From an uncultured Alphaproteobacteria bacterium (GTDB taxonomy: Bacteria; Pseudomonadota; Alphaproteobacteria; Sphingomonadales; Sphingomonadaceae), in NCBI GenBank assembly GCA_963775115.1, contig CAVZHP010000005.1:127817-191816 (forward strand): DNA of 64,000 nucleotides, given 5' to 3'. Within the stretch, counting starts at the first letter, position 1; each line of letters begins with the position of its first letter. The translations under genes were made by a program, and so were the position numbers. The notes under the pieces are model-generated. The model did no database searches. It worked only from the letters and a program-made list of their open reading frames with translations, and was not told the origin of the DNA. Shown piece after piece: positions 33,410 to 51,247 of the stretch.

Positions 33410-34552
33410 ATGAAACTCAAGGCCATTCTCACCGCTACGGTATGCGCCGCTGGACTGACAGTCTCGGCTGCCGCGTTCGCCCAAGGGTCGAACGGAAACG
33501 ACAAGAACGACGACAACGAGGGCACCGTCATCGGCAGCCAGGGCACCAACAACATTGACGACGGCAATCAGTCCACCTCCGGCGCCATCAGCACCATCGA
33601 CGACGGCAACCTGACCGGCACCGGCGACATTGCCACCAGTGACGACGATATCAAGAACGACGACGGCAACCAGACCGGCACCGGCGACATCGCCACCAGT
33701 GACGACGACATCAAGAACGACGACGGCAACCAGACCGGCACAGGCGACATCGCCACCGCCTCTTACAAAAACGATGACGGCAATCAGGCCGGCGGCGACA
33801 TCGCCACCACTGACGACGATACCACCATCAAGAATGACGATGGCAACCAGGCCGCTGGCGACCTCGCGGTCAACGACGACGGCAATCAGGCCGGAGACGA
33901 CGTCACCACCATCAAGAATGACGACGGCAATGCGGCCGGCGACGACGTCAACACCTACAAGAACGACGACGGCAACCAGGCTGCCGGCAACATCAGCACC
34001 GCCAAGAACGGCGACGGCAACCAGGCTGGCGGCGACATCAGCACCGCCTCTTACAAGAACGACGACGGCAACCAGGCTGGCAACGACATCACCACCAGTG
34101 ACGACGACATCAAGAACGATGACGGCAATCTCGCCACTGGCGGCAGCATCACCACCAGTGACGACGACATCAAGAACGATGACGGCAATCTCGCCACCGG
34201 CGGCAGCATCACCACCACCGAGAACAAGAACGGCAGCGGCAACCTCGCCACTGGCGGCAGCATCACGGACGACGATGTTATTGCCACGCAGACTCTCAAG
34301 GCAGTGATCACCAACGGTGCCGCAGTCGGGACCTTCGCAGGCTTGGGTGCCTATAACAGCGGTAGCAACTCGGTCGAAGGCAATGCCTTCTCCGCCTATG
34401 CCGGCATCCTGACGCAGGCCTGGAACACCGGCATCAATGCCAATGTCCAGGCTGGCACCAACATCGCCGCGACCGGTGCGGTCAACTTCAACGGCGTCAA
34501 CAATCCGGCGCCTGCTGCGCCTGCTGCGCCTGCTGCGCCTGCCGCTCAGTAA
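33410..34552 (+). CDS. Secreted acidic DDGN-repeat protein with a C-terminal Fap-type repeat; putative amyloid/fibre major subunit
   Basis: Signal peptide; 12 exact DDGN plus 2 variant repeats; C-terminal GNAFSAYAGILTQAWNTGINANVQAGTNIAA. Confidence 0.7.
   Translation: MKLKAILTATVCAAGLTVSAAAFAQGSNGNDKNDDNEGTVIGSQGTNNIDDGNQSTSGAISTIDDGNLTGTGDIATSDDDIKNDDGNQTGTGDIATSDDDIKNDDGNQTGTGDIATASYKNDDGNQAGGDIATTDDDTTIKNDDGNQAAGDLAVNDDGNQAGDDVTTIKNDDGNAAGDDVNTYKNDDGNQAAGNISTAKNGDGNQAGGDISTASYKNDDGNQAGNDITTSDDDIKNDDGNLATGGSITTSDDDIKNDDGNLATGGSITTTENKNGSGNLATGGSITDDDVIATQTLKAVITNGAAVGTFAGLGAYNSGSNSVEGNAFSAYAGILTQAWNTGINANVQAGTNIAATGAVNFNGVNNPAPAAPAAPAAPAAQ
33617..34260 (+). repeat. Intragenic tandem repeats, including near-identical 60-bp units
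   Basis: GGCACCGGCGACAT..CCACCAGTGACGACGA.ATCAAGAACGACGACGGCAACCAGACC repeated; ACCACCAGTGACGACGACATCAAGAACGATGACGGCAATCTCGCCAC.GGCGGCAGCATC repeated. Confidence 0.9.
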
Positions 34553-34571
34553 TCCGCAGCGGCAAATGCCA

Positions 34572-34606
34572 TTGCTCCGGACCGGAACCGCTCCGGTCCG
34601 GAGCAA
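34572..34606 (+). terminator. Perfect 15-bp stem-loop after the repeat-protein gene (attenuator or mRNA stabiliser)
   Basis: TTGCTCCGGACCGGA-ACCGC-TCCGGTCCGGAGCAA; no strong U-tract. Confidence 0.7.
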
Positions 34607-34652
34607 CCTTTCCCAAGATTTCCTCATCAATAGCGGTCCCGGAGCGGGTAAC

Positions 34653-35090
34653 ATGTCTGCTTTCAACACTTCCCTGTCGATAGTCCTGGCGTGTGGCTGC
34701 ATGACCATTGCGGACTTGGCCATGGCCGTTGAACTGACGCCTCCCGAGGTGCCAGTCACCGAAGCGCCCGCCGAAGTGTCGGCCTCACCGGCAGCCTCGC
34801 AAGATCCGGCGCCAAAGCTCGAACCTGCGCTCGATTCTCCTGATGGAGCAGTGGTTCCGGATACGGAGCTTGTTCTGAACAGGGGCCGCGAAAAGCTTGT
34901 CGTGGCCAACCAGAGCATGACGGCAGTCACCGCCGGCAACGAACTCACCGGCGGCTACACCGCCGGGAATGTCGAAATTTCCGATAACGCGCTCGCGAAC
35001 TTCACCGGGTTCGGCAACATTCTCATCAATACCGGCGCGCAGGTGAGCTTGCAGTCCGGGATGAATGTGACGCTGAATCTCGGCGAATAA
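34653..35090 (+). CDS. Secreted FapB-like minor subunit / nucleator candidate
   Basis: Signal-like N-terminus; C-terminal GNVEISDNALANFTGFGNILINTGAQVSLQ resembles the Fap repeat. Confidence 0.6.
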   Translation: MSAFNTSLSIVLACGCMTIADLAMAVELTPPEVPVTEAPAEVSASPAASQDPAPKLEPALDSPDGAVVPDTELVLNRGREKLVVANQSMTAVTAGNELTGGYTAGNVEISDNALANFTGFGNILINTGAQVSLQSGMNVTLNLGE

Positions 35091-35099
35091 GATCGCACA

Positions 35100-35873
35100 A
35101 TGGCTTCCACACCCCGCCCGATCCAGCACCGCATGCCGCGAATTGCAGCAATTCTCGCAGGTGCTCTCGGCACCTTGGCGGCCCTTACCGCTCCGGCATC
35201 CGCCGAAGTTCGCATCGGCGGCGATCCGGGCGGTTATTACAGCGTGCCGGTGATGACTTGGTGGGACATTCCCTTCCGCAGCATCGTTCGCCAGCGTTAC
35301 GATTTCAGCTGCGGATCGGCGGCGGTCGCCACCCTATTGACCTTCCACTACGGCCAACGCACCGCCGAGAGCAATGCCTTCACGGCAATGTGGGAAAAGG
35401 GCGAACAGGCGACAATCCAGCAATTCGGCTTTTCCATGTTCGACATGAAGACCTACCTGAATGACATCGGCTATCGTGCAGAAGGTTTCAGGATGTCGAT
35501 CGCCCAGCTGCGCCAGTCGAAGCGGCCGGTAATCGCCATGATCGAGGTGCGCGGTTACAAGCATTTCGTGGTGGTGAAAGGCGTGCGCGACGACAAAGTC
35601 CTGACCGGCGATCCGGCACTCGGCCTCAAGGAATATGACATCGCGGATTTTGCCAAGGCGTGGAACGGCATTGGGCTGGCCATCCTCGACAGCCCTGGCA
35701 AGGTTGAGCCGCTATACAATCTCGCCAGTGACTGGGGCCCATGGTCGCGCGCACCGGTTGAGGAACAGAGCGGGCTTCAAGGTGCCGTTGGCGACCTCAC
35801 CACTTACCTGCCACCGGCCTATCAGATTACGCCGCAGCTCCTGCTCGATGTCCGGGTGGGGACGGTGAATTGA
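35100..35873 (+). CDS. C39 family peptidase, FapD-like
   Basis: RQRYDFSCGSAAVATLL, GFSMFDMK, YKHFVVVKG, DPALG; signal peptide; no ABC domain. Confidence 0.9.
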   Translation: MASTPRPIQHRMPRIAAILAGALGTLAALTAPASAEVRIGGDPGGYYSVPVMTWWDIPFRSIVRQRYDFSCGSAAVATLLTFHYGQRTAESNAFTAMWEKGEQATIQQFGFSMFDMKTYLNDIGYRAEGFRMSIAQLRQSKRPVIAMIEVRGYKHFVVVKGVRDDKVLTGDPALGLKEYDIADFAKAWNGIGLAILDSPGKVEPLYNLASDWGPWSRAPVEEQSGLQGAVGDLTTYLPPAYQITPQLLLDVRVGTVN

Positions 35874-35874
35874 C

Positions 35875-37242
35875 GTGGCGGCGCTGACATCATCGCTGGG
35901 ATTTGCCCTGGCGGCGGCGATTTCACCCAATTCCGCACTGTCCGAAGCCGATCGCCCGCCAAACGTCGAATCGACGGCAGCGATGGCCCGCCTTGAAGAC
36001 ATGCCTGAAGCCGAATTTGGCCAGGCTGCCTCCTCAGATGCGCCGGTGTCGCTGTTGGCGGATGCCGGCCTGCCCGATACACTTTACGCATCCGTCGATA
36101 CAGCGCCGAGCCTGGAGGGCGAACTCGCCGCACCAGTATCCCTGCTGGCGGATGCGGGGCTGCCCGAAGCGCTTTATGCCTCTGCGGATACAGAGGCTGA
36201 ACTGGCGCGCGAGGCTACCGCGCCAATATCGCTGCTTGCGGATGCCGGCCTGCCCGAAGCTCAGTATAGCTCCGCTGGCACAGAACCGGAGCTGGTGGTT
36301 GAAGCCACCGCGCCAATATCGCTGCTTGCGGATGCCGGCCTGCCCGAAGCTCAGTATAGCTCCGCTGGCACAGAACCGGAGCTGGTGGTTGAAGCCACCG
36401 CACCGGTCTCGCTGCTGGCGGATGCGGGGCTGCCCGAAGTGCAAATTGCCTCCACCGATAAATGGCGGGAGCAGGAGGACGAGACTGCCGCGTCGGCTTT
36501 GTCGCTGAGAGATTCCGGTCCGGTCGCATTCCGCGATGTTCGCGCGGAAGCGATACCGGTCCCGGCATTCGGCGCCGCTCCGCCGCCATTGCCCTGGAAC
36601 GACGACAGGTCGGACCGATCGCCGGTTGCCATTCCGCAAGTCGCCTTTGGTCGCAGGAACGAAACTCCGGCTCCCGAGCGTTCCGAGCCGGAAGCAAAGG
36701 CATCGGGCCCAGCCAGGCCAAAGGAATTGGCAGCATTCGTGCAGGACGACGAACAGTTCGGAGAACTCGTCGCGGTCGGAGACGAGGAACTGTCGGGCCA
36801 ACGCGGCGGTTTTGCTCTGGCGGGGATGAACATAAATTTCGGCGCTGAGCTGCGCAGCTATATCGACGGCGAAATGGTGCTGATGACGCGGCTCAGCTGG
36901 ATGGATGATTCGGTTACCAAGACCCAGCTGGTCTCGCCCGGTCTGACTCCGGCCATGGCATTGAACGGTGTGGTGTCGAGCGGCCAGATTCGCCTGCCCG
37001 CCGGGAATCTCGACACATTTCAGGCCAACAATGGCGGCACAGTGATCGCGCATGGAGTCGAACAGGGGCTGCGCAGCGTAATCATCAACACAGCTAACGG
37101 AGTACAACTGGCAACCGAAGCCGACGTCTCGCTGGACGTGGCGGGCTATTCCGCCTTCCGCGAACAGGTTATGCAGATGCGTATCAACGACGTCCTGGGC
37201 ACTGCGGTATCGAATGCGACGCGCGACGCACTTGGGACCTGA
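35875..37242 (+). CDS. FapE-like protein with five 30-aa N-terminal repeats
   Basis: VGDEELSGQRGGF motif; AP(V/I)SLLADAGLP repeats. Confidence 0.6.
   Translation: MAALTSSLGFALAAAISPNSALSEADRPPNVESTAAMARLEDMPEAEFGQAASSDAPVSLLADAGLPDTLYASVDTAPSLEGELAAPVSLLADAGLPEALYASADTEAELAREATAPISLLADAGLPEAQYSSAGTEPELVVEATAPISLLADAGLPEAQYSSAGTEPELVVEATAPVSLLADAGLPEVQIASTDKWREQEDETAASALSLRDSGPVAFRDVRAEAIPVPAFGAAPPPLPWNDDRSDRSPVAIPQVAFGRRNETPAPERSEPEAKASGPARPKELAAFVQDDEQFGELVAVGDEELSGQRGGFALAGMNINFGAELRSYIDGEMVLMTRLSWMDDSVTKTQLVSPGLTPAMALNGVVSSGQIRLPAGNLDTFQANNGGTVIAHGVEQGLRSVIINTANGVQLATEADVSLDVAGYSAFREQVMQMRINDVLGTAVSNATRDALGT
36217..36401 (+). repeat. Perfect 90-bp tandem duplication within the FapE-like gene
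   Basis: 36217-36306 is identical to 36307-36396. Confidence 0.9.
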
Positions 37243-37659
37243 AGTTCCGGTTAGCTAATTTTTCTGGACACAAGTCTCTGTATTTGCGCCAAAAATCCTG
37301 CTTCACCCGAGGTTTCGGATCAGTCCGGGACGCCTATCGAACGATAATCTTGTTGCAATCCTTAGTTGGATGGCATTGGATGGCACCGGTCGTCAATAAA
37401 GCGATTCGTCTGAGCAGCCCATGATTCCGGCCTGCCTGCGAATCCGAATTAACTTACAAGTTCAGAGCGAGTGGCTCAGTGGATTCACAACATCCGCTAA
37501 GCTATTGCTTGTGTTTGAGATTTTTATTACCACAAGCAGCGCTCAAAAGTTACTTCAAGACATCCAACATAAGGGTGCAGGTCGTCTATAATACTTTGTG
37601 GTTCGCAATTATTATTACAATGTGATGCCATTTTTAAGACAACCAGGGGTGAAGTGACA

Positions 37660-38382
37660 ATGTCGATGGTGTTCCCACATGAGCAGATCGTAAGAGGCTC
37701 GGGCGGATCGATGGTGCAGCTTGAGAAGGGCGCCTTGCTCTACGATCAGGACACTCCGGCCAATTGCTGGTACGAAATCGTGTCCGGCATCGTCAGGACC
37801 TGCCGCATACTAAGAGATGGACGACGTCAGGTCACCGGCTTCCATTTTCCTGGCGATGTCTTCGGATTCGATGGTCCCAACCACAAGACTTCGGCCGAAG
37901 CCGTCACCGATGGCGCCACGGTCCTCGACTATTCAGGCGGCGGAACGGCCGCGCAGCCTGCAATACGTGAAAGCGCCATTGTCGGCCTGCAGCGCGCGCT
38001 GGATTGCGCGGAGGGCAGCATCAGGCTGCTGGGACATCGCTCGGCGCCCGAACGGCTGGCTGCATTTCTGCTCATGCTGCGGTCGAAACTGGAACTGGGT
38101 TCGCATTTCGTAATGCCTATGCCGCGTACCGATATCGCCGACTTCCTGGGTCTGACCGTAGAAACCGTAAGCCGTACCCTGACAGATTTCGCCCGCAAGC
38201 GACTGATCGTATTCGAAACGCCCCAACAGCTGCTTGTCGAGGATTGGGCCAGATTGCGCGATGTTGCCGGCGACGATGAGGATAGCCTGGTGACCGCATC
38301 GTGCTATTCCCGGCGGCTTGAGTTGCTGTCACCTGACGGGAACAGGGCCGGACAGAAGATTCAATTAGAGCTGCAAGGCTAA
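37660..38382 (+). CDS. Crp/Fnr (FixK-like) transcriptional regulator
   Basis: GRRQVTGFHFPGD.FG, ERLAAFLL, MPRTDIADFLGLTVETVSR HTH; no N-terminal Cys cluster. Confidence 0.9.
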   Translation: MSMVFPHEQIVRGSGGSMVQLEKGALLYDQDTPANCWYEIVSGIVRTCRILRDGRRQVTGFHFPGDVFGFDGPNHKTSAEAVTDGATVLDYSGGGTAAQPAIRESAIVGLQRALDCAEGSIRLLGHRSAPERLAAFLLMLRSKLELGSHFVMPMPRTDIADFLGLTVETVSRTLTDFARKRLIVFETPQQLLVEDWARLRDVAGDDEDSLVTASCYSRRLELLSPDGNRAGQKIQLELQG

Positions 38383-38400
38383 GCACCGGGAGGATAGGCC

Positions 38401-40491
38401 ATGGTCAGCACTCAGGATGGCGGCATCGCCGCCTTCATAGCTTGTGCCTCGGCAATCGCAGGGCAGGCAACGCCGAACGACGAGTTGATCCACAAATTCG
38501 GGCTCGACTCGCCGGTCCCGCCGTTCGCGGATTCGGACCTGACCGCAGCTCCTTATGTGCTGCCGGAAGTCGAGATCGGACAAGGCTATGCATCCGCCAT
38601 GCCGGTTCCGATGTTTGCCGCTGCCGGCACGAAAAATACGCACTATCTGCCATCTGCGGCCGGAACGGACCTGGCGCCAGATTTCGCGCCTTTAGCCAAG
38701 CCGCTGACGCACCAGAGTCAGGCGAAAGCCCAGGCTTCGCAACCGGAAATCGAACCCAGCCTGAACTACGCCCCTGCCATTCCGGCCCCGCAGTTTGCCG
38801 ATTCCGGGCTGCTGGATCCGCTGGACGCACTTGTAGCAGACGTGCCAAGCCCGCTTTACGCTCCGGTGACGCCGGTTTTGCCGGTCATGGCAACCGGAAC
38901 GCCAGGCCCGATGGCGGCACTGCCCGATGCTCCCGAGCGCCAGGATTATGCGCCAGGCAAGCCTGTCTCGCTGTTTGCCGATGCCGGCTTGTCCGATATG
39001 CTTTATGCCCCCGCCGAAGCCACGGCGGGTTCCGGTGCCGAACCGGTATCTCCTCTCATGCCGCATGCGTCCGGCAACCTGATCGATGTTCGCGAAGCCA
39101 TTCCGGCACCAGCGCAGGGCAGCAGCTTCAAACTGCCCCTCCCCGTCCCGGCCCAGGCAGACGTCGGCATGGCCGAGCCTTCGGAGGACCAGGCAGCGGC
39201 ATCGCCAGGTCAGACCATGCCGCGAACAGATCCCGGACAGCAGGCGATCCTGGACCGGCTGAACCGGCTTGAGGAGCAACTGCAATCGCAAAGAGTGCAG
39301 TTGTCCGAGCAGGCCGGGATCATTTCCAGTCAGCAGAAAGAAATCGAGGCGTTGCGCCAGCAGGGGGCAAACGATGCCGCGCTTGCTGTTCGCGCCCGGG
39401 GCACCGGCAATATGGTTCAGCCGCTTTTTGGCATGCAGGCTGCGACAGCGCCCGCAACCTCCGCAGCACCTGCAGCGCTTGCGCCGGTAACCGCTTCAGG
39501 CAGGCCCGCAATGCCCCCGCAACCTGTTGGCGAAGCGCCGGCGGAAGCCGAGCCCAGGGTTGAGCGAGTTGTTACCGCCGTGCCCGAAGGCCTGGGCGTG
39601 CTGACGCCAAAAGGCCGCTTTGTCTACGATCCTTCATTCGAATACTCGCGGTCCTCGACCAACCGGCTGGTATTCCGGGGCTTCGAGCTGATCCCGGGCA
39701 TTCAGATCGGCGTAATCGAAGCAACCGATGCGGATCGCGACACGCTCGCGCACACGTCCACGCTGCGCTACGGACTGACCAACAGGCTGGAAATCGAAGC
39801 CAGAGTGCCGGTGTTGTACCGGCATGACAGGATCGAGGTTGTGCAACAGCGCGATCAGGGCATTGTCCGTTCGATCGAACTGAGCGAAGGCAACATAGGC
39901 GATGCTGAATTTGCCATCCGCTATCAACTTAACCGGCCAAAGGGCGCGCAACAGCCGATTTTCGTCGGCAGTGTCAGAGTCAAGAGCGACACCGGAAAAG
40001 GGCCCTTCGATGTCGGCTACGATACATTCGGGGTGGCCACAGGTCTGGCGACCGGTTCCGGATTCTGGGCGGTGCAGCCCGGACTGAACTTCCTGCTGCC
40101 TAGCGATCCTGCGGTGATCTATGGATCCGCGTCCTATGTCTATCATATCCCGCGGAACGTGAACCGCATCATTGGCGGCGCTTTCGTTGGCAGGGTCGAT
40201 CCGGGCGATGCGGTCAGCGCCAGTCTCGGTTTCGGTTTTGCCCTCAACCCCCGCTTCTCATTTTCGCTCGGCTACGGACACACTTATATTTTCCCGAGCA
40301 AACAAGAGATCGGCGGAACCTTGCAGCGCTCGAAGTCGCTTCAGGTCGGCAGTTTCAACTTCGGAATGTCCTATCGGCTCAGTCAGAAGCAGACGATGAA
40401 TGCCTCGTTCGAACTCGGGGCGACGTCGGATGCGCCGGACATGAGTTTTACACTTCGCTTCCCGTTCTCGTTTGGCGGCGGCGGCCGCTAG
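38401..40491 (+). CDS. FapF-like outer-membrane beta-barrel secretion channel with a long Pro/Ala-rich N-extension and coiled coil
   Basis: VPVLYR, IGDAEFAIRY, VRVKSDTGKGPF, TGSGFWAVQPG, DPAVIYGS, FALN, G.TSDAPD..F.L.FP follow the FapF motif order as recalled; coiled coil LDRLNRLEEQLQSQ. Confidence 0.85.
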   Translation: MVSTQDGGIAAFIACASAIAGQATPNDELIHKFGLDSPVPPFADSDLTAAPYVLPEVEIGQGYASAMPVPMFAAAGTKNTHYLPSAAGTDLAPDFAPLAKPLTHQSQAKAQASQPEIEPSLNYAPAIPAPQFADSGLLDPLDALVADVPSPLYAPVTPVLPVMATGTPGPMAALPDAPERQDYAPGKPVSLFADAGLSDMLYAPAEATAGSGAEPVSPLMPHASGNLIDVREAIPAPAQGSSFKLPLPVPAQADVGMAEPSEDQAAASPGQTMPRTDPGQQAILDRLNRLEEQLQSQRVQLSEQAGIISSQQKEIEALRQQGANDAALAVRARGTGNMVQPLFGMQAATAPATSAAPAALAPVTASGRPAMPPQPVGEAPAEAEPRVERVVTAVPEGLGVLTPKGRFVYDPSFEYSRSSTNRLVFRGFELIPGIQIGVIEATDADRDTLAHTSTLRYGLTNRLEIEARVPVLYRHDRIEVVQQRDQGIVRSIELSEGNIGDAEFAIRYQLNRPKGAQQPIFVGSVRVKSDTGKGPFDVGYDTFGVATGLATGSGFWAVQPGLNFLLPSDPAVIYGSASYVYHIPRNVNRIIGGAFVGRVDPGDAVSASLGFGFALNPRFSFSLGYGHTYIFPSKQEIGGTLQRSKSLQVGSFNFGMSYRLSQKQTMNASFELGATSDAPDMSFTLRFPFSFGGGGR

Positions 40492-40519
40492 AACCTGGGC
40501 ATGCCGTCAAACATCACGA

Positions 40520-41797
40520 TTACAGGCGGAAGGAAACGCCGGCGCTGAAGACCCAGGGATCGAGCTTGACCTTAGCTTCGACCGGAGCGCCACCGAAGGT
40601 GCCGCGGGTAGCGGGGCGCAGGAAGGCTTTCTTGACGTCGAAGAACAGCCCCCAGTTCTTGCCAACCATGACATCCGTTCCGGCTTCGAAGGCCAGTGCC
40701 AGGTCATTACTGACGCGCAAATTCTGGAACGCGCCATCCTTGGTGCTGAACACGATCATGTAGCTGGCGCCTGCGCCCACATAGGGACGAAAGCGGCCGG
40801 AAACCTTGGGATGATACTGTAGCGTGAACGCGGTCGGACCATAGCGGACGTCGCCCAGCTTCGGCAGCGCGCCAATGCTGCCGGCACCATAGACGCCGAT
40901 CTTGGGCGGCAAGCCGACGGTCGCGTTGACGGCAATGGTTTCTGTCAGGAAATAGCCGACCTGGAGAGTCGGGGTATGGTGCTCGAAGGTTGAAATGCCT
41001 TCGCCGGTCAGCGGCGCGCCTCCGACGACCATTTGCGCTTCGTCGCGCAGACGCAGGCTCGCCATGCCGAGCTTGACCGACCAGCGCTTGGTCGAATCGA
41101 GCTCGACGGATTCCGCTTCGTCGCTATCCTTGCCGAAATGCGCGGTCAGGCCCAGCTGAACAGTCAGCGGGTCGAGCACGGCGCGCGCGCGGACGTCGGC
41201 GAAACTGGTATAGGTGGCGTCGAGCGGAAGCTTGCCAGAAGCGCCGGTGTGATACCAAGCCTTGCGCACATCGGCGAAGATGCCCCAGCGCTTGTTGACC
41301 TTGTAATCGACGCCGGCGTGAACGTAGGGGCCATGCGCATTGGGGATGTTGAGCCCCACTGCGAGGCCATCGCGCTCCTGCGTCGTCAGCTGCAACTGGA
41401 TGCCACCGCCGACATAGGGCGAAAACTTGCCCTTGACCGGGTGAAAGCTGGCGCCAAGCGAGGCGAGCACGAATTCGTCGTCGCCAAGATTGGGCGTACC
41501 GGCCAACGATCCAGCGGGAATGTTGTTGGTTGTCGCCGGCGTAGAGAGCGATCCCTCGATGGCGAATTTATCGACCAGGTAATGACCCACCGTCACGACC
41601 TGGTGATAGGTCTCGCGGGTCTTGTAGGCAGCGGCAGGATCCTGAACGCTGTTGACGAACACTTCGCCCTTGTCGACCAGCTTGGTCCGGGCGGCAGCGA
41701 GGCGCACGAACGTGTCGCCTGCCTCTTGGGCTATGGCCGGGGTGCAAATCGAGGCACCAAGGCAAACGGCCAGAGCGTACAAGATGGTCTTCTGCAT
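40520..41797 (-). CDS. Tandem two-domain OmpW/AlkL-family outer-membrane protein
   Basis: Signal peptide; two OmpW units (KFSPYVGGG...WGIFADVRK...LDPLTVQLG and RFRPYVGAG...WGLFFDVKK...LDPWVFSAGVSFRL). Confidence 0.85.
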   Translation of the reverse strand: MQKTILYALAVCLGASICTPAIAQEAGDTFVRLAAARTKLVDKGEVFVNSVQDPAAAYKTRETYHQVVTVGHYLVDKFAIEGSLSTPATTNNIPAGSLAGTPNLGDDEFVLASLGASFHPVKGKFSPYVGGGIQLQLTTQERDGLAVGLNIPNAHGPYVHAGVDYKVNKRWGIFADVRKAWYHTGASGKLPLDATYTSFADVRARAVLDPLTVQLGLTAHFGKDSDEAESVELDSTKRWSVKLGMASLRLRDEAQMVVGGAPLTGEGISTFEHHTPTLQVGYFLTETIAVNATVGLPPKIGVYGAGSIGALPKLGDVRYGPTAFTLQYHPKVSGRFRPYVGAGASYMIVFSTKDGAFQNLRVSNDLALAFEAGTDVMVGKNWGLFFDVKKAFLRPATRGTFGGAPVEAKVKLDPWVFSAGVSFRL

Positions 41798-43400: not shown

Positions 43401-43769
43401 TTAACTATTGGCCGTGTGCTTCTCGATTTTCTCGATAAGATCGGGAAGCGAAACCGGCTTGGTTTCAAAGTCGACGCAGCCGACTTCGATGCTCCTCTGG
43501 CGGTCGCTTTCCAGAGCGTGCGCAGTCAGGGCAATCACAGGCAGATGAGCGGTCGCGGGATTGGCATGGATCAGCTTGGTTGCTTCCCAGCCGTCCATCG
43601 CACCGAGCGCCACGTCCATCAGCACGATCGCCGGCATCTCGCTCGCCGCCATGGCGACGCCTTCGGGTCCATCGACTGCGCAGACAACCGCGTAGTTGTT
43701 GCGCTCCAGCCGACGCTTCAGCATGTCGCGGTTCATTTCGTTGTCTTCGACGATCAGTATCTTTTTCAT
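43401..43769 (-). CDS. Single-domain response regulator
   Basis: ILIVEDN, LMD, ALTA, KP. Confidence 0.9.
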   Translation of the reverse strand: MKKILIVEDNEMNRDMLKRRLERNNYAVVCAVDGPEGVAMAASEMPAIVLMDVALGAMDGWEATKLIHANPATAHLPVIALTAHALESDRQRSIEVGCVDFETKPVSLPDLIEKIEKHTANS

Positions 43770-43793
43770 GGTTCTCTCTGCGACTAAAAGCGT

Positions 43794-45200
43794 TCAGGCG
43801 GCTTCGGCGAGCTTGACGTCGTCGCTGCAAATGGCCGGGATGATCAGCAGGTTGGCCGGACGCGCGCCTGACGGCGACGTCTCGATCCGGCCGCCGAGCA
43901 GCTGTACGAATTTCTGGGCCAGCACCATCTCGATACCAGTGCCGCCATATTTGGACGCAGAGTCGTCGTCTTCGTGCTCGAAACTGTCGAGTATGGCCTG
44001 CGGCTCGCGGATGCCACCGTCCTCGTCGAAGTCCACAACGGCAAATGCGAATTCGCGGGAGGCATGCTTGCTGATCTCCAGCTCGATGCGCCCGCCCGAT
44101 CGGCGGCCTGCGGTAGCAGCGCATATGTGCTGCAGCGCCTGGCCCATGATCTTCCAGTCGGTCTTGCCGGCGAGCTCTCCGGTCGCGGGAAGCTTGAAGT
44201 CCACCGCACATTGCGATGCAGCCAGCGCCTTTTCGATCGGCGTGCGCCATTCCCCTACATGGGTCGCGATCGACCCATAGGTCGGGTTGAGCGGCATCTT
44301 GCCTGCTTCGATCCGCGAATAGTCGAGAATGTCGTCGATCAGGCGGAGCAGGTTGGAGCCGGATTCATGCACATTGCGCAGGTCCTGCAGCAATTCGTCG
44401 TCCTGCTCGTCGGCGGCTTCCTCCATCAACAGATGGCTGTAGCCGATAATCGCATTAAGCGGCGTGCGCAGCTCGTGGCTCATGCTGGCGACAAAGTTGG
44501 CTTTCGCGGCGCTGGCCTGCTGCGCCGACAGAGTCAGGTTCTGAACGTTGTCGGAAATCGAATCCAGACTGCGAAGTTCTTTGGTGAATGCCCTCTGTTC
44601 ATTGAACATTCTAGCAAAATACAGCGCCATCATGGCGAAGTAGACGGCGACGCTGCCCATCGAGATCATGCCAATGGTCTGCATCGTCTTGAGATCGATG
44701 TAGGGCGTCTGATGGCCCGATAGCATCAGCGCAATGAACCCGCCGGCGCTGCCGAATATCTGCAACAGCAGGACGTTTCGCAGCCAGCCATCCTGCGGCA
44801 GGTAGAGGAAGGCCAGCAGCGGAAAGATCAGGATCCACGGCAGGAACGGTGAGCTCAGGCCGCCGAAGGCATAGCACGCCCACAGACCGCAGAAGATCAG
44901 GTTCTGAACCGAAATGACCGCCAGCGTGCTGTACAGCTTGGTCCACCGCAGCGCGAAGGGATAGGCCCAGAAGGCCAGAATCGAGAAGAAGAACACGAAC
45001 ACGCGGTAGTCGCGGCAGATGTCCATGATATAGAGGTAGGCGGGCAGCGAATTGCCGAGAAACGGCCCGAACACGTGGCTGATCATGAACATTCGCGCAC
45101 GCCGGTGCGAGGCCGGATCGGCAAGCAGTTCGGCCGGGATGAAATGATCGAGGAAACCGCTCAGGGTCCATCGTTTCGATTTTTCGGCCCATGATTGCAT
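43794..45200 (-). CDS. Membrane sensor histidine kinase with a degenerate ATPase domain
   Basis: About 6 TM segments; SHELRTPLNA H-box intact; N-box and G1 box altered. Confidence 0.85.
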   Translation of the reverse strand: MQSWAEKSKRWTLSGFLDHFIPAELLADPASHRRARMFMISHVFGPFLGNSLPAYLYIMDICRDYRVFVFFFSILAFWAYPFALRWTKLYSTLAVISVQNLIFCGLWACYAFGGLSSPFLPWILIFPLLAFLYLPQDGWLRNVLLLQIFGSAGGFIALMLSGHQTPYIDLKTMQTIGMISMGSVAVYFAMMALYFARMFNEQRAFTKELRSLDSISDNVQNLTLSAQQASAAKANFVASMSHELRTPLNAIIGYSHLLMEEAADEQDDELLQDLRNVHESGSNLLRLIDDILDYSRIEAGKMPLNPTYGSIATHVGEWRTPIEKALAASQCAVDFKLPATGELAGKTDWKIMGQALQHICAATAGRRSGGRIELEISKHASREFAFAVVDFDEDGGIREPQAILDSFEHEDDDSASKYGGTGIEMVLAQKFVQLLGGRIETSPSGARPANLLIIPAICSDDVKLAEAA

Positions 45201-45343
45201 CGAACATTCCTCCACGCGTCACGCCGGACCGACTTCATGTCGCAGCACGATACGATGACTGGTGGTTTACAGGATCAGGCGTTAAGTCCGCGTAAATCGC
45301 GACCCAGGTTAATTGTAATCGTTCAGTTCTACGGGCTTTGACG

Positions 45344-46942
45344 TCACTGGCCCGCCGACATCCGGCCAGGCAGGATTTCACTGTCCGGAAGCTGTATTCC
45401 GAGCTGCTTGAGCTGCAACAGTTCCGAACTGGCCTTAGCATCGGGCGCCAGCGGCTCGATTTGCTGTTTACCGCGATACTTTATCAAATCCTCGATCGGC
45501 ATCGGCGCGCCAATCTCGTAACCTTGGAGCAAATCGCAGCCGAGCAATTGCAGCAGGCGGACATGGTATTCATTTTCAACACCTTCGACCACAACCTTCA
45601 TGTCAAGGCTGTGACCGAAATTGATCATCGTGCGAATGATCTGCGTCGCCTGGCGCTTTTCGCCGACATTGCGCAGGAACGGCTTGTCGAGCTTGAGCGC
45701 ATCGAGCGAGAAGTGTTGCAGATAACTCAGCGAAGAATAGCCGGTTCCAAAATCGTCGAGGAACACCTGCACCCCGATGTCGCGCAGCCGGCTTATCGCG
45801 ATATGCGCCCGCTCCAGGTTTGAGATCAGCACGCCTTCGGTGATCTCGAGGATCAGCAGCTCGGGCGCGATCCGCGCGGCGAACAGGCGGTCAAACAGGC
45901 GGTGGACGAATTCGGGATGCTTGAAGTAGACCGGCGAGATGTTCACCGCCACGCCAACGTCGCCGAGCAGCTTGATAGTGTCGAACGCGCAGTCGAGCGT
46001 CCATTCGGTGAGGTCCTCGATGTGCCCGCTTTCTTCGGCAATCGGGATCAGCGTCGACGGCGAAATGTCGCCAAGGTCGGTCGACTTCCAGCGCAGCAGC
46101 AATTCAATGCTTGACATCTTGCCGCTGCGGGCATCGACAAGCGGCTGATAAACCAATGCAAGTTCGCTCTTCAAGGCCGACTGGCCAAGCGCCACGCGGA
46201 TCGAGCTTTCCATTGTCTGCCGGCCATCGAGTTGGTCGTCGAAGATCTGGAAGGCACCGCGCTGCGAGCCCTTGGCGGCATACATGGCGAAGTCCGCGCG
46301 GCGAAGCAGCACGTCCGCGCCGTCGATCCGCGGACTGCCGAGCGCAATGCCTACCGAAGCGCCGACATTGACCAGCTTGTCCTCGATCTGCAGCGGATCG
46401 CTCAACGCCTCAACGATTTCCTGGCCGATCGTCTCCAGCGTGCGCTGCGGATCGATCGGCAGGATCGCGGCAAACTCGTCACCGCCGAGGCGGGCGAAGG
46501 CAATCGCGTCTCCGATCACCGGCGCACATCGGCGTGCGACTTCGATCAGCACCTGGTCCCCGGCACGGTGACCCATGGTGTCGTTGATGTCCTTGAACTT
46601 GTCGAGATCGAAAAACAGCACCGCGATCTGCTCGATATCTTCCTCGACGACCTTGGCGAAGGCATGGTTGAAGGCGATGCGGTTGAGCAGGCCGGTCAGG
46701 GGATCGATATTCGCCTGGCGGTGAAGTTCCTTACGGACGAATTGCAGCTCGACATGCTCGAGCGTCATGCGGCGGTGCTGGTTGACCGCGAAGGACATTG
46801 CCAGCAGGCTGACCAGGCCCGCCGCCGCCGCCGCGCCCGGCGTGAGCGGTAACAGGCCCACACCCGCCGCACCAAGATAGGCCGGAGCGGTTGAGGCAGC
46901 AGCACCCTGAATCCAGGGCGTAAGGCTTGAGCGCAGGGTCAC
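45344..46942 (-). CDS. Membrane-anchored GGDEF-EAL protein
   Basis: RLGGDEF; IELLLRW (EAL variant); DDFGTGYSSL; GTG start overlaps the upstream TGA. Confidence 0.9.
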   Translation of the reverse strand: MTLRSSLTPWIQGAAASTAPAYLGAAGVGLLPLTPGAAAAAGLVSLLAMSFAVNQHRRMTLEHVELQFVRKELHRQANIDPLTGLLNRIAFNHAFAKVVEEDIEQIAVLFFDLDKFKDINDTMGHRAGDQVLIEVARRCAPVIGDAIAFARLGGDEFAAILPIDPQRTLETIGQEIVEALSDPLQIEDKLVNVGASVGIALGSPRIDGADVLLRRADFAMYAAKGSQRGAFQIFDDQLDGRQTMESSIRVALGQSALKSELALVYQPLVDARSGKMSSIELLLRWKSTDLGDISPSTLIPIAEESGHIEDLTEWTLDCAFDTIKLLGDVGVAVNISPVYFKHPEFVHRLFDRLFAARIAPELLILEITEGVLISNLERAHIAISRLRDIGVQVFLDDFGTGYSSLSYLQHFSLDALKLDKPFLRNVGEKRQATQIIRTMINFGHSLDMKVVVEGVENEYHVRLLQLLGCDLLQGYEIGAPMPIEDLIKYRGKQQIEPLAPDAKASSELLQLKQLGIQLPDSEILPGRMSAGQ

Positions 46943-47442
46943 TTGCCTATCCGATCCCTGGCCAGGAGCGCCCGCGCCTGATCGTGGAGCCGCTGCTCGA
47001 CCGTAGCCATCTCGCCGTCGATCGATCCGACGATTGCCTGCTGCTTGAGGTGCAGCGCCATACGCGCCTTGAGGATCGGCAGGTTGATCGGTTTGACGAT
47101 ATAGTCGTTCGCGCCAGCCTGCAGCGCCTGGATGACCGAGCTGTCCTCGCCGAGCGCGGTGCACATGATCACCGGCAGGCGAACGCTGTCATAGATCTCG
47201 CGGATCGCGACCAGGGTTTCGAGCCCGGTCAGTTCGGGCATCATCCAGTCGAGCAGCACCAGATCGGGCTTGCTGACAGAGATGATCGAGAGCGCCTTGC
47301 GGCCACTTTCGGCGACTACGGGTACATAGCCGCCGCTGGTCAGCGCGCGCTGGAGCAGAACGCAGTTGTCCTCGATATCGTCGACGATAAGGATCGTGCG
47401 GCGGCTGTCGGCCGGGCGAAGCGGGAGGATCGGCGCGTTCAT
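46939..47442 (-). CDS. Response regulator (REC plus short helical tail)
   Basis: ILIVDD, LLDWMMP, GANDYIVKP. Confidence 0.9.
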   Translation of the reverse strand: MNAPILPLRPADSRRTILIVDDIEDNCVLLQRALTSGGYVPVVAESGRKALSIISVSKPDLVLLDWMMPELTGLETLVAIREIYDSVRLPVIMCTALGEDSSVIQALQAGANDYIVKPINLPILKARMALHLKQQAIVGSIDGEMATVEQRLHDQARALLARDRIGK

Positions 47443-49418
47443 GCCGCCATCTCCTTCAGATGCGCGGCAATTTCGCGCGGCGACAGCGTCCCCTTGCTGC
47501 AGAACTTGTAGCCGGCATTGATGATCCGCTGGTGATCTTGCATGGTCAGGTCGCGCGCGCTGAGCACGATCGCCGGAACATTAGCCAGATCCTTGTCCGC
47601 AAGCAGTTCTTCCATCAGGCTGAAACCGTCGGAATTTGGCATGGCGAGATCGAGTACCAGCGCGCTCGGCCGCTTTTCGCGGGCCATGCGCAGGCCTTCC
47701 TCGCCGTCCCGCGCCCGGCGACCGGCAAAACCTACCTGGGCGGCGCAGCGCAGGACCAGTTCGGCGGCATCGTCATCGTCCTCGACGACGAGAATGTCAC
47801 CCTTGGCCGGACTTTGATAGACCTCCAGCATCGAGCGCAACTGCTGCTCAGCGATCGGTTTGCGGACATATTCGGTGGCACCCAGATTGAGCCCACGCGC
47901 GCGGTCGTCCTCGACAGTGACGAGGATGATCGGCGTCTCGGCGGTCCTGGGATTGCTGCGAAGTTGCTCGAGGACATCGTAGCCCGAGCGCCCGGGCATC
48001 AGCACGTCGAGCAGGATCAGGTCGAAATTCTGTTCGAAGGCCTTGGCCAGACCCGTATCGCCGTCGATTGCGGTGATCACCGCATAGTTGAGCCTGCCGA
48101 GCCAGCGGCGCATCAGGTCGAGCGAAGCCTCGTTGTCATCGATGACCAGCACCTTGCGTTTCTGCCCGTCCGCAGCCTCGTCCGACGTTCCCGCTTCGGC
48201 AGGTGTTTCGCCCTGATCGGACCGCTGGGCGGCGTAGGCCTTGCCGCGGGCCAATGGATTCACCGGGAGAACGAGCGTGAAAGTCGATCCCTTGCCAGGT
48301 GTGCTTTCCGCGCGAATGTCGCCGCCCATCAGGCGGGCCAGCCGGCGGCTTATCGCGAGACCAAGTCCGGCGCCACCCTTCTTGCGGGTCGAGGACGCAT
48401 CCGCCTGGCTGAAGGTCTCGAACTGTTCTTCGAGCTTGTCCGGCTCAATTCCCATGCCCGAATCGGTGACGGCAAAGGTCACGATTGTCGGAATGCGCCT
48501 TTCGTATTCAACCTGGACATCGAGAACGACGCTGCCGGCTTCGGTGAATTTGAACGCATTGCCGAGCAGATTGTGCAGACATTGACGGATCTTCAACTCA
48601 TCGCCGATCATCACACCGATATCGTCCTGAACGGCGACACCGAAGTTGCAGCCATTGCGCCCTTCCCCCTCGGCGTATTCACCGGCGATCGTAGCGACCA
48701 ACGCCGCGACATCGACGACAGTGCGCTCGACCAGCGCCTTGCCGGTCTCCAGCTTCGACAAGTCGAGCAGGTCGTTGATCAGCGTCAGAAGGTGCCGCCC
48801 GGCAAGCTGGATGCGCTCGAGATCGGCGACGGCGGCTGCATTGCCGGCCGCGGCGGCGTCCTCGTGGAGCAACATGGCGTAGCCCAGCACTGCGTTGAGC
48901 GGGGTGCGAAGTTCATGGCTCATGTTGGCAAGGAATTGCGATTTGGCGACATTCTGCAGATTGGCCTGCTCGCGCGCCTGTTCCAGCTTCACCAGAGCAT
49001 CGCGGCTGCGCGCTTCGGCAAGGCCGTAGCGCTGGCGCAGCAGCTCGATGTCGGCAGCCAGCTGCGAAGCAGAACCCGATTGCGGCCCGGCCAGCTGGAG
49101 CTGCTCGAACACCCTGTCGCCCGAAAGCTCGAGATGCGCGGTGATCATGTCGATCGGCTCGGCCAGCACCGGCGCCAGCCGCGCTGCGAGGCGGCCAGCG
49201 GCGAGCCACACCGCGGCGAGGCCCGCTGCTGCACCCATCGCCAGACCCGCTGCGGGGTGAAGCTGCGGCGCCAGAAACAAGCTGCCACCCGCAACCAGCG
49301 ACGTCACCACCGGCGCCAGCGCTGTCGCGCCGAGCGCCTGACGGCGAACGACATTGGCAACGCCGCCTGCCAGGCTGGCAGGCTTCACATCATCGAGCGG
49401 GAATTGCTCATTTTTCAT
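47439..49418 (-). CDS. Hybrid histidine kinase with two receiver domains
   Basis: SHELRTPLNA, NLLGNAFKFT, DSGMG, GAGLGL; REC LLDVLMP and VLDLAMP. Confidence 0.9.
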   Translation of the reverse strand: MKNEQFPLDDVKPASLAGGVANVVRRQALGATALAPVVTSLVAGGSLFLAPQLHPAAGLAMGAAAGLAAVWLAAGRLAARLAPVLAEPIDMITAHLELSGDRVFEQLQLAGPQSGSASQLAADIELLRQRYGLAEARSRDALVKLEQAREQANLQNVAKSQFLANMSHELRTPLNAVLGYAMLLHEDAAAAGNAAAVADLERIQLAGRHLLTLINDLLDLSKLETGKALVERTVVDVAALVATIAGEYAEGEGRNGCNFGVAVQDDIGVMIGDELKIRQCLHNLLGNAFKFTEAGSVVLDVQVEYERRIPTIVTFAVTDSGMGIEPDKLEEQFETFSQADASSTRKKGGAGLGLAISRRLARLMGGDIRAESTPGKGSTFTLVLPVNPLARGKAYAAQRSDQGETPAEAGTSDEAADGQKRKVLVIDDNEASLDLMRRWLGRLNYAVITAIDGDTGLAKAFEQNFDLILLDVLMPGRSGYDVLEQLRSNPRTAETPIILVTVEDDRARGLNLGATEYVRKPIAEQQLRSMLEVYQSPAKGDILVVEDDDDAAELVLRCAAQVGFAGRRARDGEEGLRMAREKRPSALVLDLAMPNSDGFSLMEELLADKDLANVPAIVLSARDLTMQDHQRIINAGYKFCSKGTLSPREIAAHLKEMAA

Positions 49419-49442
49419 GGATGCGGTTTCCTAAGGACTTAA

Positions 49443-50843
49443 TTACGCAGCAAGGTCTTGCGGCTGTTCGGCGGGTTGGCCGCGAGTCATCGGCAGCTTG
49501 ATGGTGAAGGTCGACCCGATGCCGCGCTCGGAACTGACGGCAATCGAGCCGCCCATCATCGTGCAGAAGCGCCGCGTCAGGGCGAGGCCAAGGCCGGTCC
49601 CGCCGAATTTCTCGGAAGTGTCGTTTTCTGCCTGGCTGAAATCGGAGAACAGGCGGCTCAGCCCATCCCTGGTCATACCGATGCCGTTGTCGGCTACTTC
49701 GATGCGCAGCACTTCGCTGCCATCGTCGTCGTTGCGGATGCAGTTGACCGACAGCATGACGACGCCCTTTGTCGTGAATTTAGCGGCGTTGCTCAGCAGG
49801 TTGAGCACCGACTGACGCAATTTGAGCGCATCGAGCTGCAGTACGCCGAGATCCTCGGGCATATCGACGATAAGGCGATTCTCGCGGCGCTTCACCAGCG
49901 GCGCGGCGGTGGCGACGACGTCATCGACCAGCGAAGTCAGCCGGATCGGCTTCGCCAGCACTTCCAGTCGGTTGGCCTCGATCGAGGACAGGTCGATCAC
50001 GTCATCGACCAGCGCGAGCAAGTGACGGGCGGCGGCGCTGATCCGGTCGAGATCCGACATCTTGCGCTCGTCGCTGCCCTTGTCCTCGTAGGTTTCACGC
50101 AGCATTTCGGTGTAGCCGATCACCGCGTTGAGGGGCGTGCGCAGTTCGTGGCTCATCTTGGCGAGGAAGATCGATTTGCGCTTGCTGGCCAGTTCCGCCG
50201 CTTCCATCGCCTCGCGCAGCGACTGCAGCTTCATGCGCTGCGCATCGGTCTCAAGCTCGGCCTGGGCGCTGTTGCGCATAACCTTTTCGTAATAGAGCGA
50301 CAGGATCGTCATGTAGACCAGCGCCGCGCAAATCGAGAGAAGATTGGCGAATTTCAGGCTTTCCTGGGTCAGGATGTCGGGAAAATCACCGAGCAGCGCT
50401 CGCGCCGTGAAGAACAGGGCGAGCTGGGTGCCGACACCGGCAAGAATATAGGCGACTTTGTCCGCGAGGAAGAAGAAGCCGAGCCCCATGGCGATCAGGA
50501 ACCAGGGCAGGAACGGCGAGCTGATGCCGCCGAAGAAGAACGATCCGAACAGGCTGAGGCAGACCAGCATCTGCGCGCTCAGCATCGCCGGCGTCACCAG
50601 ATTTCCGGCCACCCGCAAGATCAGCGGGATGGCGAAGAAGCTGACCACCAGCGCCTCAGTCACCCAGAATTGCCAGGTCGAAACTGCGGTTGTGCGCGCG
50701 AGAAAATAGGTAACCGAGTGCCCCATCAGCGGCCCGATGAAGTGCAGCGCCACGAAGGTGCGCGCCATCAGCCGGTCTAAATCGCTCTCGCCGATCTGGT
50801 CTGGAATGAACCAGTCCACAAAATCCAGCAGCTTCTGAAACAT
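49443..50843 (-). CDS. Membrane sensor histidine kinase
   Basis: About 6 TM segments; SHELRTPLNA, NLLSNAAKFT, DNGIG, GTGLGL all intact. Confidence 0.9.
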   Translation of the reverse strand: MFQKLLDFVDWFIPDQIGESDLDRLMARTFVALHFIGPLMGHSVTYFLARTTAVSTWQFWVTEALVVSFFAIPLILRVAGNLVTPAMLSAQMLVCLSLFGSFFFGGISSPFLPWFLIAMGLGFFFLADKVAYILAGVGTQLALFFTARALLGDFPDILTQESLKFANLLSICAALVYMTILSLYYEKVMRNSAQAELETDAQRMKLQSLREAMEAAELASKRKSIFLAKMSHELRTPLNAVIGYTEMLRETYEDKGSDERKMSDLDRISAAARHLLALVDDVIDLSSIEANRLEVLAKPIRLTSLVDDVVATAAPLVKRRENRLIVDMPEDLGVLQLDALKLRQSVLNLLSNAAKFTTKGVVMLSVNCIRNDDDGSEVLRIEVADNGIGMTRDGLSRLFSDFSQAENDTSEKFGGTGLGLALTRRFCTMMGGSIAVSSERGIGSTFTIKLPMTRGQPAEQPQDLAA

Positions 50844-50956
50844 CGATATGCCCCCGTTCAGATCGGGAAGCCTAGCTAACAACGATTAAGGATGTGCAAA
50901 CTCGCCTGCTTTTCTCGACGGTTATTCGACGGCCGCCAGGCCCGCGCGCTACCCGA

Positions 50957-51247
50957 TCAACAGGAAACGATTTTCGCGCCGAAACGCCAGCCCACGGCCC
51001 AGCGGACTTCCGCCCGGACTGGGCCGCGATCGGGTATGATGACCTCGACCATGCTGCCAAGCCGGACCTTGCGTTCGCACTCGGCCATGAAACCGCCATC
51101 GGAAATGTTGGCCAGGCGGCCGATCAGCTCGCTGTCATTCTCGTCGGTGATGCGCACGGAGAAATCGCAGGCCCAGCGCGGTGCACGTTGCACGTGGCAA
51201 GCGGGAGCCCGGGCAGGCGTTTTGTCGACCGGATTGGCGGCTAGCAT
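50957..51247 (-). CDS. Stand-alone PilZ domain protein
   Basis: RAPR followed by NISDGG; 96 aa. Confidence 0.75.
   Translation of the reverse strand: MLAANPVDKTPARAPACHVQRAPRWACDFSVRITDENDSELIGRLANISDGGFMAECERKVRLGSMVEVIIPDRGPVRAEVRWAVGWRFGAKIVSC

Follow-up and report, generated by a model that had tools for sequence, protein, structure and literature searches.

Quorum sensing with alpha-hydroxyketones (AHK) is described for the Lqs system of Legionella (lqsA-lqsR-hdeD-lqsS plus the orphan lqsT) and for cqsA-cqsS of Vibrio, and clusters of the lqs/cqs type have been listed from Gamma- and Betaproteobacteria, with no Alphaproteobacteria among them (PMC3376566). The fapABCDEF genes of Pseudomonas constitute the Fap functional amyloid system (PMC3792158, PMC6173800). 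This system has been found only in Beta-, Gamma- and Deltaproteobacteria; the FapD and FapF models match many non-Fap proteins, and it is the repeat pattern that defines Fap (Dueholm et al., PMC3792158). Here, we analyse an 18-kb block, flanked by grxD (32708-33037) and imuA (51456-52232), in which a possible counterpart of the first system and a distant relative of the second lie side by side. The block is part of a 64,000-nucleotide stretch of DNA from an uncultured member of the Sphingomonadaceae, called the window below, and all positions are those of the window unless another genome or locus is named. Its minus-strand half, module A (40520-51247), carries an alpha-oxoamine synthase (AOS) gene together with sensor kinases and cyclic di-GMP (c-di-GMP) proteins, and its plus-strand half, cluster B (33410-40491), carries a Fap-like secretion locus. 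A preliminary description of the block presented the two halves as one module that makes a signal, senses it and switches amyloid production. Our comparison with related genomes points instead to two gene clusters, independent of each other, that have come to lie tail-to-tail in this genome alone, a reading to which we give a probability of about 0.7.

The two halves are convergent, and the 28 bp reported to separate the stop codon of the FapF-like gene from that of the OmpW gene were confirmed by measurement (40492-40519). We searched for the AOS in samples of 151 genomes of the family and 401 of the order, and for the FapF-like protein in the family sample. Close homologues of the AOS were detected in 2 of the 151 family members sampled (G127 and G000, the genome under study) and in 2 of the 401 order genomes (G000 and G497). 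The FapF-like protein is found in 24 family genomes, belonging to 23 genera, and the present genome is the only one in these samples that carries it together with the AOS. At E<=1e-5, no FapF-like gene was detected in six other complete genomes that carry module A, namely G127, Sphingomonas longa BT552, Erythrobacter alti, G497, S. immobilis and an Allosphingosinicella metagenome-assembled genome (MAG); the positive control G065 was recovered at 2.8e-152 within this search. Reciprocally, neither the AOS nor the sensor domain of its kinases occurs in any of the 23 other FapF-like carriers of the family sample. Furthermore, the neighbours of module A differ in each of ten other sphingomonad genomes or contigs. 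The genes found there 3' of the double OmpW gene include a TonB-dependent receptor, TyrS/TrpS-MurJ-SecB, a pyrophosphatase, a peptidyl-prolyl isomerase, an inositol phosphatase with CysNC, PilZ with ROK, and a glutathione S-transferase-like gene. Since the halves fail to co-occur in the related genomes in which their co-occurrence was sought, the reading of the block as one inherited system is refuted, and the combined system appears to be a chance juxtaposition. Comparative genomics sufficed to overturn the claimed amyloid-switching quorum circuit.

The close, convergent packing of the halves in this strain could still be taken as a sign of an integrated system, in which the AOS would make an autoinducer, the kinases would sense it, and c-di-GMP would switch on the Fap-like fibre genes through the Crp regulator. 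Their separate inheritance makes such a circuit very unlikely, and co-transcription of the halves is excluded because their genes converge. A shared motif was a second argument for this circuit. The octamer GTTAGCTA lies at three intergenic sites, at 33069 (within the palindrome CGTTAGCTAACG), at 37250-37257 and at 50873-50880 (minus strand), and its reported presence in intergenic DNA of both halves is correct. Genome-wide, there are 12 matches in 4.05 Mb, 4 of them, at these three sites, inside the block. However, this recurrence is not established as being above chance, because the 8-mer was picked after looking at the sequence and resampling often yields an 8-mer at three or more sites. 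Indeed, Markov resampling of the block's intergenic DNA (1.6 kb) placed some 8-mer at three or more separate sites in 56% of the resampled sequences, and another 8-mer, CCGGACCG, likewise occurs three times in the real DNA. In addition, GTTAGCTA is absent from all 49 related loci of other genomes, which include ten AOS modules and several Fap-like clusters.

The Crp/FixK-family regulator was supposed to connect the signalling half with the fibre genes. Some Crp-family regulators of other bacteria bind c-di-GMP, which would agree with such a role. However, the Crp gene accompanies the FapF-like gene: it stands directly 5' of it in G065 and G097 too, and in the distant version of cluster B in G112 two LuxR-type (GerE helix-turn-helix) regulators precede the cluster in its place (L025 3897-6136). 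The Crp regulator belongs to cluster B, as a gene specific to its subclade, and not to the signalling half, contrary to the proposed circuit. Other connecting elements were not found either. A riboswitch search of the block returned neither a c-di-GMP riboswitch nor any other Rfam element, and the matches of a promoter and terminator scan did not go beyond shuffled expectation. With no riboswitch and no conserved shared motif, nothing seen in the sequence links module A with cluster B. A near FixK/Fnr box, ATGACAATTCTCAA (33269-33282), about 130 bp 5' of the first fibre gene, has one mismatch to TTGA-N6-TCAA; this candidate was dropped, as such boxes are not clearly more frequent in the window than chance would give and none is present 5' of the G065 homologue.

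Two points weigh against a complete separation of the halves. First, cross-talk through the c-di-GMP pool may take place in this strain and would be compatible with independent inheritance; a functional link between module A and cluster B in this strain has, in our estimate, a slim chance. Second, module A of other genomes sometimes stands near surface or matrix loci, a proximity that would also suit an integrated system. This is a loose pattern from three genomes (L009 1-2376; L051 1-2586; L008 17440-18108), comprising an adhesin of the cadherin/Big_9 type with more than 2500 aa, an XrtV exosortase/exopolysaccharide locus accompanied by a sugar transferase, and a PEP-CTERM protein. It is also conceivable that both clusters arrived together on one mobile island between grxD and imuA, with no functional link. 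The GC content of the halves (0.605 and 0.613) is slightly under that of the genome (0.641), both are patchily distributed in the family, and the neighbouring imuA-imuB cassette is itself patchy in the genus. On the other hand, the right flank has a GC content of 0.609, similar to that of the halves, inspection of the block revealed no integrase, transposase, tRNA or flanking repeat, and the pair is found together in none of the other genomes searched. The closest ImuA in the genus is only 58-63% identical, too distant to show an empty grxD-imuA site. Joint acquisition seems quite unlikely to us, and the origin of the block as two independent clusters is the reading that we retain.

The genes of the two clusters are listed in Table 1. 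Their content was established from a listing of open reading frames (ORFs) and from Pfam and NCBIfam scans, which recovered every gene named in the preliminary description. Literature searches on alphaproteobacterial Fap, on AHK signalling in sphingomonads and on Fil returned no description of module A or cluster B.

Table 1. Features of cluster B and module A, with their positions in the window and the evidence for each.
Feature	Position	Strand	Cluster and evidence
Acidic repeat protein, 380 aa	33410-34552	+	Cluster B; Tandem Repeats Finder (TRF) repeats, composition, hhalign
Small secreted subunit p145, 145 aa	34653-35090	+	Cluster B; 17 homologues
Periplasmic C39 cysteine peptidase, FapD/FilB-like	35100-35873	+	Cluster B; Pfam Peptidase_C39, NCBIfam
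Repeat protein p455, 455 aa, FapE position	35875-37242	+	Cluster B; repeats, homologues
Crp/FixK-family regulator	37654-38382	+	Cluster B; Pfam, NCBIfam
FapF-like outer-membrane channel, 696 aa	38401-40491	+	Cluster B; NF058560, PDB
Fused tandem OmpW, 425 aa	40520-41797	-	Module A; Pfam OmpW
Alpha-oxoamine synthase (AOS)	41848-43302	-	Module A; Pfam Aminotran_1_2
Single-domain receiver adjoining AOS	43401-43769	-	Module A; Pfam Response_reg 1.4e-23
Sensor pseudokinase HK473 (predicted)	43794-45215	-	Module A; Pfam, paralogue of HK479
Membrane GGDEF-EAL protein	45344-46942	-	Module A; Pfam GGDEF 6.8e-35, EAL 1.3e-63
Single-domain receiver	46939-47442	-	Module A; Pfam Response_reg E=9e-27
Hybrid histidine kinase	47439-49418	-	Module A; Pfam HisKA, HATPase, two REC
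Sensor histidine kinase HK479	49443-50843	-	Module A; Pfam HisKA, HATPase
Small PilZ protein	50957-51247	-	Module A; Pfam PilZ 4.4e-8
Palindrome CGTTAGCTAACG	33068-33079		Holds one of the three GTTAGCTA sites

Module A appears to be a rare, conserved and horizontally scattered signalling module of nine genes, composed of two operons plus the PilZ gene. Operon 1 encodes the HK479 kinase, the hybrid kinase, a receiver and the GGDEF-EAL protein, and operon 2 encodes HK473, the second receiver, the AOS and the double OmpW. The identical eight-gene set is found in every sphingomonad context whose contig reaches far enough. The two operons usually diverge from a common intergenic region, and they are collinear in the window and in L005. 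The latter, the closest relative, has an AOS 88% identical and the 3' part of the hybrid kinase at the contig end. A search with the sensor domain alone in the 151 family genomes retrieved only G000 and G127, both AOS carriers; an overlap in exactly those two genomes would arise by chance about once in 11,000 cases. The AOS and sensor-domain match lists have at least 18 metagenomic contigs in common, recognized by their identical lengths, and a kinase with a multi-transmembrane (TM) sensor adjoins the AOS in each of the 10 sphingomonad contexts as well as in a Stellaceae MAG, which lies outside the order. In this MAG, the genes after an AOS 60% identical encode a receiver and two kinases that share the sensor domain. 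Since OmpW and GGDEF-EAL are missing there, the universal core would consist of the synthase, the receiver and the sensor kinases. The claim that the synthase, multi-TM kinases, receivers, GGDEF-EAL protein and double OmpW belong together is upheld, as they are conserved and co-inherited.

The HK479 kinase has an N-terminal sensor domain of about six TM segments, followed by intact HisKA and HATPase domains. Five clear hydrophobic segments and a weaker one lie within residues 40-200, and no periplasmic domain is present. HK473 is a paralogue of HK479 over the full length, with 29% identity, and the N-terminal domain common to both spans about 200 residues and contains five to six hydrophobic helices. 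Its motifs DxFxP, HxxGP and GGxSSPxxPW are invariant. This domain matches no Pfam or NCBIfam family at E<=10 and is present in two or three copies per carrier genome. The N-box Asn, G1 and G2 are kept in HK479 and lost in 8/8 orthologues of HK473, in which the H-box is invariant and the Pfam HATPase match is weak or missing. Judged by these motifs, HK473 is probably a conserved pseudokinase with a degenerate ATP-binding domain. The hybrid kinase, with two TM segments, HisKA, HATPase and two REC domains, is kept in every complete sphingomonad context examined. The receiver gene next to it overlaps both adjacent genes by 4 nt, at its start and at its stop, and its synteny is conserved. The other receiver lies upstream of the AOS in all sphingomonad contexts, and that of the Stellaceae MAG lies directly downstream of it.

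Two further features of these kinases were noted. G127 carries, away from the module, a third kinase with the same sensor domain (C12:2803-3363), an orphan sensor like LqsT of Legionella. Moreover, 12 of 13 kinases, from both paralogue families, end in Ala-Ala (LAA, QAA or EAA; 43794-43802 and 49443-49451 in the window). These ends resemble an ssrA-like C-terminal degron and could subject the kinases to regulated proteolysis.

The AOS is a fold-type I PLP-dependent enzyme (Pfam Aminotran_1_2, 8e-39), whose SFSK, SHAC and DVAH motifs align with the catalytic Lys, His and Asp of 2-amino-3-ketobutyrate CoA ligase (KBL, 1FC4) and serine palmitoyltransferase (SPT, 3A2B). Its placement was examined by comparing hidden Markov model scores with those of the genome's own paralogues. 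The AOS is below every NCBIfam cut-off, with 276 bits for BioF, 242 for SPT, 238 for KBL and 185.7 for CqsA (NF005526), the last against a cut-off of 428. Among PDB structures, it matches KBL with 185 bits, SPT with 177 and CqsA with 111. On the CqsA/LqsA model, the genome's own SPT, 5-aminolevulinate synthase (ALAS) and BioF-like protein reach 172, 169 and 146 bits; since these paralogues score similarly, the 185.7 bits of the AOS represent background cross-family similarity. More than 100 AOS cluster representatives with 70-88% identity carry only generic annotations, and a locus search with the AOS as query gave 3 loci. The AOS thus seems to be an orphan member of a distinct, well-populated and unnamed clade. 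It is the fifth member of the family in this genome, the others being the SPT, two ALAS copies and the BioF-like gene, all located elsewhere.

From the observed gene content, co-inheritance and domain states of module A, we infer what molecule it produces, how ligand and receptor are related and which way the phosphoryl groups flow. The AOS would condense an amino acid with an acyl-thioester, giving a hydrophobic molecule of the alpha-aminoketone type, and the double OmpW would let this signal pass across the outer membrane. Within the inner membrane, the signal could be perceived by the paired membrane sensors, a kinase and a pseudokinase or phosphatase. The hybrid kinase and the single-domain receivers could then form a phosphorelay that sets the balance between GGDEF and EAL activities, and the PilZ protein would read the resulting c-di-GMP level. 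The co-occurrence of AOS and sensor, together with the Stellaceae MAG, supports a putative Cqs/Lqs-like synthase-sensor circuit with c-di-GMP output, outside those families. Several observations count against this signalling scheme. The AOS has no apparent specific sequence affinity to CqsA/LqsA, so that the case for a signal synthase has to come from context. The version of the Stellaceae MAG includes neither OmpW nor GGDEF-EAL. Finally, neither an HPt (histidine phosphotransfer) domain nor a DNA-binding output was found in module A, and the phosphorelay to the GGDEF-EAL protein is for this reason a conjecture.

The closeness of the AOS to KBL, SPT and BioF rather than CqsA also fits a module with no role in cell-cell signalling, whose kinases would sense another membrane or envelope cue and whose AOS would be an output enzyme. 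Its product could be an envelope aminolipid, a sphingoid-like compound or a secondary metabolite, for instance an aminoketone-derived pyrazine, and the double OmpW would export this product or import the substrate. The outer membrane of sphingomonads is built from sphingolipids, OmpW-family proteins pass hydrophobic molecules, and the penultimate position of the AOS in a kinase-receiver operon is that of a plausible output gene. We nevertheless regard this reading as rather unlikely. The AOS is strictly co-inherited with a single, otherwise unknown sensor domain, of which each genome has two or three copies, and the housekeeping SPT is located elsewhere. Furthermore, module A contains no DNA-binding regulator able to control the AOS as an output, and no genes for an acyl carrier protein, a reductase or an acyltransferase (N-acyltransferase), which lipid synthesis would lead one to expect. 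The linkage of the AOS to a private sensor domain, the missing regulator, the missing partner enzymes and the OmpW-type conduit in the same operon together argue for a signal synthase.

The analogy with Cqs and Lqs drawn in the preliminary description holds for the architecture of the locus and not for the synthase sequence. As in both systems, a PLP-dependent AOS is encoded beside membrane kinases that have a multi-TM sensor but lack a periplasmic domain, and the distribution in environmental bacteria is patchy; as in Lqs, two related sensor kinases and a receiver accompany the synthase. Unlike CqsA/LqsA, the AOS stays under the model cut-off and scores no better on it than the SPT, ALAS and BioF of the same genome. 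The sensor domain matches no Pfam or NCBIfam family, and one of the two sensors appears to be a conserved pseudokinase. The output also differs, with GGDEF-EAL and PilZ proteins in the place of LuxU/LuxO or LqsR, as do the dedicated double OmpW in the operon and the alphaproteobacterial hosts. Tentatively, and at somewhat less than even odds, module A could represent a third AOS-based cell-cell signalling lineage, evolved independently after Cqs and Lqs. It would be characterized by an unrelated 6-TM receptor kinase-pseudokinase pair, a double OmpW signal conduit and a direct c-di-GMP/PilZ output, and confined to a scattered minority of Sphingomonadales plus at least one Stellaceae lineage. 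To our knowledge, LuxI/LuxR is the only type of quorum sensing known in sphingomonads. Module A is a candidate signalling system of Alphaproteobacteria that does not use N-acyl-homoserine lactones, and it offers a testable ligand-receptor pair, formed by the orphan AOS and the unassigned sensor domain, as well as a natural kinase-pseudokinase pair.

The double OmpW matches Pfam OmpW (3.8e-45) in two separate stretches of one 425-aa chain, corresponding to two 8-stranded barrels behind one signal peptide. The pair is fused in 8 other sphingomonad contexts; G127, which carries the full module A set, has two separate adjacent genes. Tandem 8-8 double-barrel outer-membrane proteins have been predicted as a class (PMC8346858); no function is known for the 8-8 type. 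The protein of module A resembles the OmpW/AlkL 8-8 class in having two OmpW-type 8-stranded units in one chain; unlike in that class, the fused form belongs to one particular synthase operon, and G127 still has it as two genes. As for the GGDEF-EAL protein, its 606-aa ORF overlaps the upstream gene, and a GTG at 46942, which fits the orthologue lengths of 493-533 aa, is probably the true start. The GGDEF, ELL, DDFGTGYSS and EGVE motifs are readable in its translation. The (D/N)xSxxG motif of the PilZ protein is intact as NISDGG, and the first motif, RAPR, reads RxxR, not RxxxR. PilZ orthologues with 56-60% identity adjoin module A in S. immobilis and the Allosphingosinicella MAG, at differing positions. 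This protein is a probable c-di-GMP receptor encoded by a variably placed accessory gene.

Turning to the plus-strand half, cluster B appears to be a self-contained fibre secretion cluster of the Fap/Fil type. Its FapF-like channel, composed of a coiled coil and a barrel, reaches 148 bits (2.5e-43) on the FapF model NF058560, against a cut-off of 700, and 68 bits on the FilC model NF050079, against 630. Its only PDB matches are the FapF structures 5O65/5O67/5O68 (E=5e-37). The C39 peptidase matches Pfam Peptidase_C39 (6e-19), the FapD model NF058616 with 150.8 bits (3.4e-44; cut-off 330) and the FilB model NF050078 with 114 bits (cut-off 475), and its PDB matches are double-glycine peptidase domains. 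With scores so far below the equivalog cut-offs, the channel and the peptidase can probably be called FapF and FapD homologues only. The channel also carries a lineage-specific N-terminal extension with FADAGL-type motifs. We noted in this extension (38401-39020) one close copy (PVSLFADAGLSDMLY) and two weaker copies of a repeat, PVSLLADAGLPE, that is also found in p455.

Three secreted proteins precede the channel. None of them contains a match to the minimal Fap repeat X15-G-X4-N-X3-G-X6-N-X7, and at E<=10 none matches a family model, of FapB/FapC or otherwise. No Pfam or NCBIfam match to FapA or FapE was obtained among them, the presence of such models in the libraries not being confirmed. 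The 380-aa protein consists of about 14 DDGN-type repeats (TRF periods of 45, 60 and 90 nt) and is rich in D (16%), G (15%) and N (13.5%); it has a homologue in G065. Its C-terminus matches the p145 profile (hhalign E=2.4e-4), and since it is related to the p145 core, the 380-aa protein is the probable major subunit. The start of the 217-aa ORF of p145 is too early, and the corrected protein has 145 aa. All of the 17 p145 homologues are annotated as hypothetical. They have in common a conserved 65-aa core rich in N, Q, G and T, whose sequence GNxLINTGAQVSLQSGMN is nearly invariant, placed after a double-glycine-like site. An AlphaFold2 monomer of p145 is of low confidence, with a mean pLDDT of 51 and about 40 in the core.

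The third secreted protein, p455, contains five 30-aa PVSLLADAGLPE repeats, followed by EELSGQRGG (36784-36810) and by a conserved C-terminal domain. Two of the five repeats are a perfect 90-bp duplication, and neither the repeats nor the channel extension is found in the orthologues of G065 and G097. The C-terminal domain has homologues in a 191-aa protein of G065 and a 257-aa protein of G112, in each case after EL-x3-RGG, and p455 has a weak hhalign match to the p145 profile (1.1e-3). The three secreted proteins thus seem to have a weakly related C-terminal core in common. The EL-x3-RGG motif directly precedes the core in 15/17 p145 members and in 3/3 p455-like proteins examined (also L029 97-672 and 1455-2075; L025 9197-9970); in p145 of the window, at about aa 72-79, it reads RGR. 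Its spacing is that of a double-glycine leader, and the gene of a double-glycine-type peptidase adjoins. We infer that EL-x3-RGG is a candidate C39 cleavage site, at which the peptidase probably processes the subunits in the periplasm before their exit through the FapF-like channel. Such a site beside a C39 peptidase could help to settle the cleavage target of FapD-type peptidases, that of Pseudomonas Fap included.

The organization of cluster B varies among its carriers. In G065 and G097, the Crp and FapF-like genes, in this order, converge on the genes for the p455-like protein, the C39 peptidase, the p145-like protein and the repeat protein; both clusters are set between housekeeping genes, such as dnaE and pyrG in G065. 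The version of G112, with 40% identity, keeps the order subunit, C39 peptidase, p455-like protein and channel. The major subunit of G112 is a 621-aa repeat protein rich in N, S and D. Like Pseudomonas Fap, cluster B has a FapF-family channel whose N-terminal part is a coiled coil, a periplasmic C39 peptidase for which FapD is the best match, repeat-rich secreted proteins rich in N, Q and G, and a similar gene order, from subunits through peptidase and an accessory secreted protein in the FapE position to the channel. Unlike Fap, it contains no Fap repeat, scores far under the equivalog cut-offs, has an embedded Crp gene and resides in an alphaproteobacterial host. Fil of Acinetobacter, a putative pilus, provides the second-best matches of the C39 peptidase (FilB) and of the channel (FilC); unlike in Fil, no match to other Fil components was seen. 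These Fil matches suggest that fibre systems relying on a C39 peptidase and a FapF-like channel form a wider class. Cluster B is a distant alphaproteobacterial relative of this Fap/Fil machinery.

Two minor observations concern the other AOS-family genes of the genome. The NCBIfam model matches the SPT gene (C9:465268-466098) only as far as position 327 of 399, beyond which the frame departs from it. The break reflects either a frameshift or an error of assembly, and a sphingomonad would be expected to depend on this gene. In addition, the two ALAS genes (C9:81822-82880 and C5:363886-364947) are near-identical.

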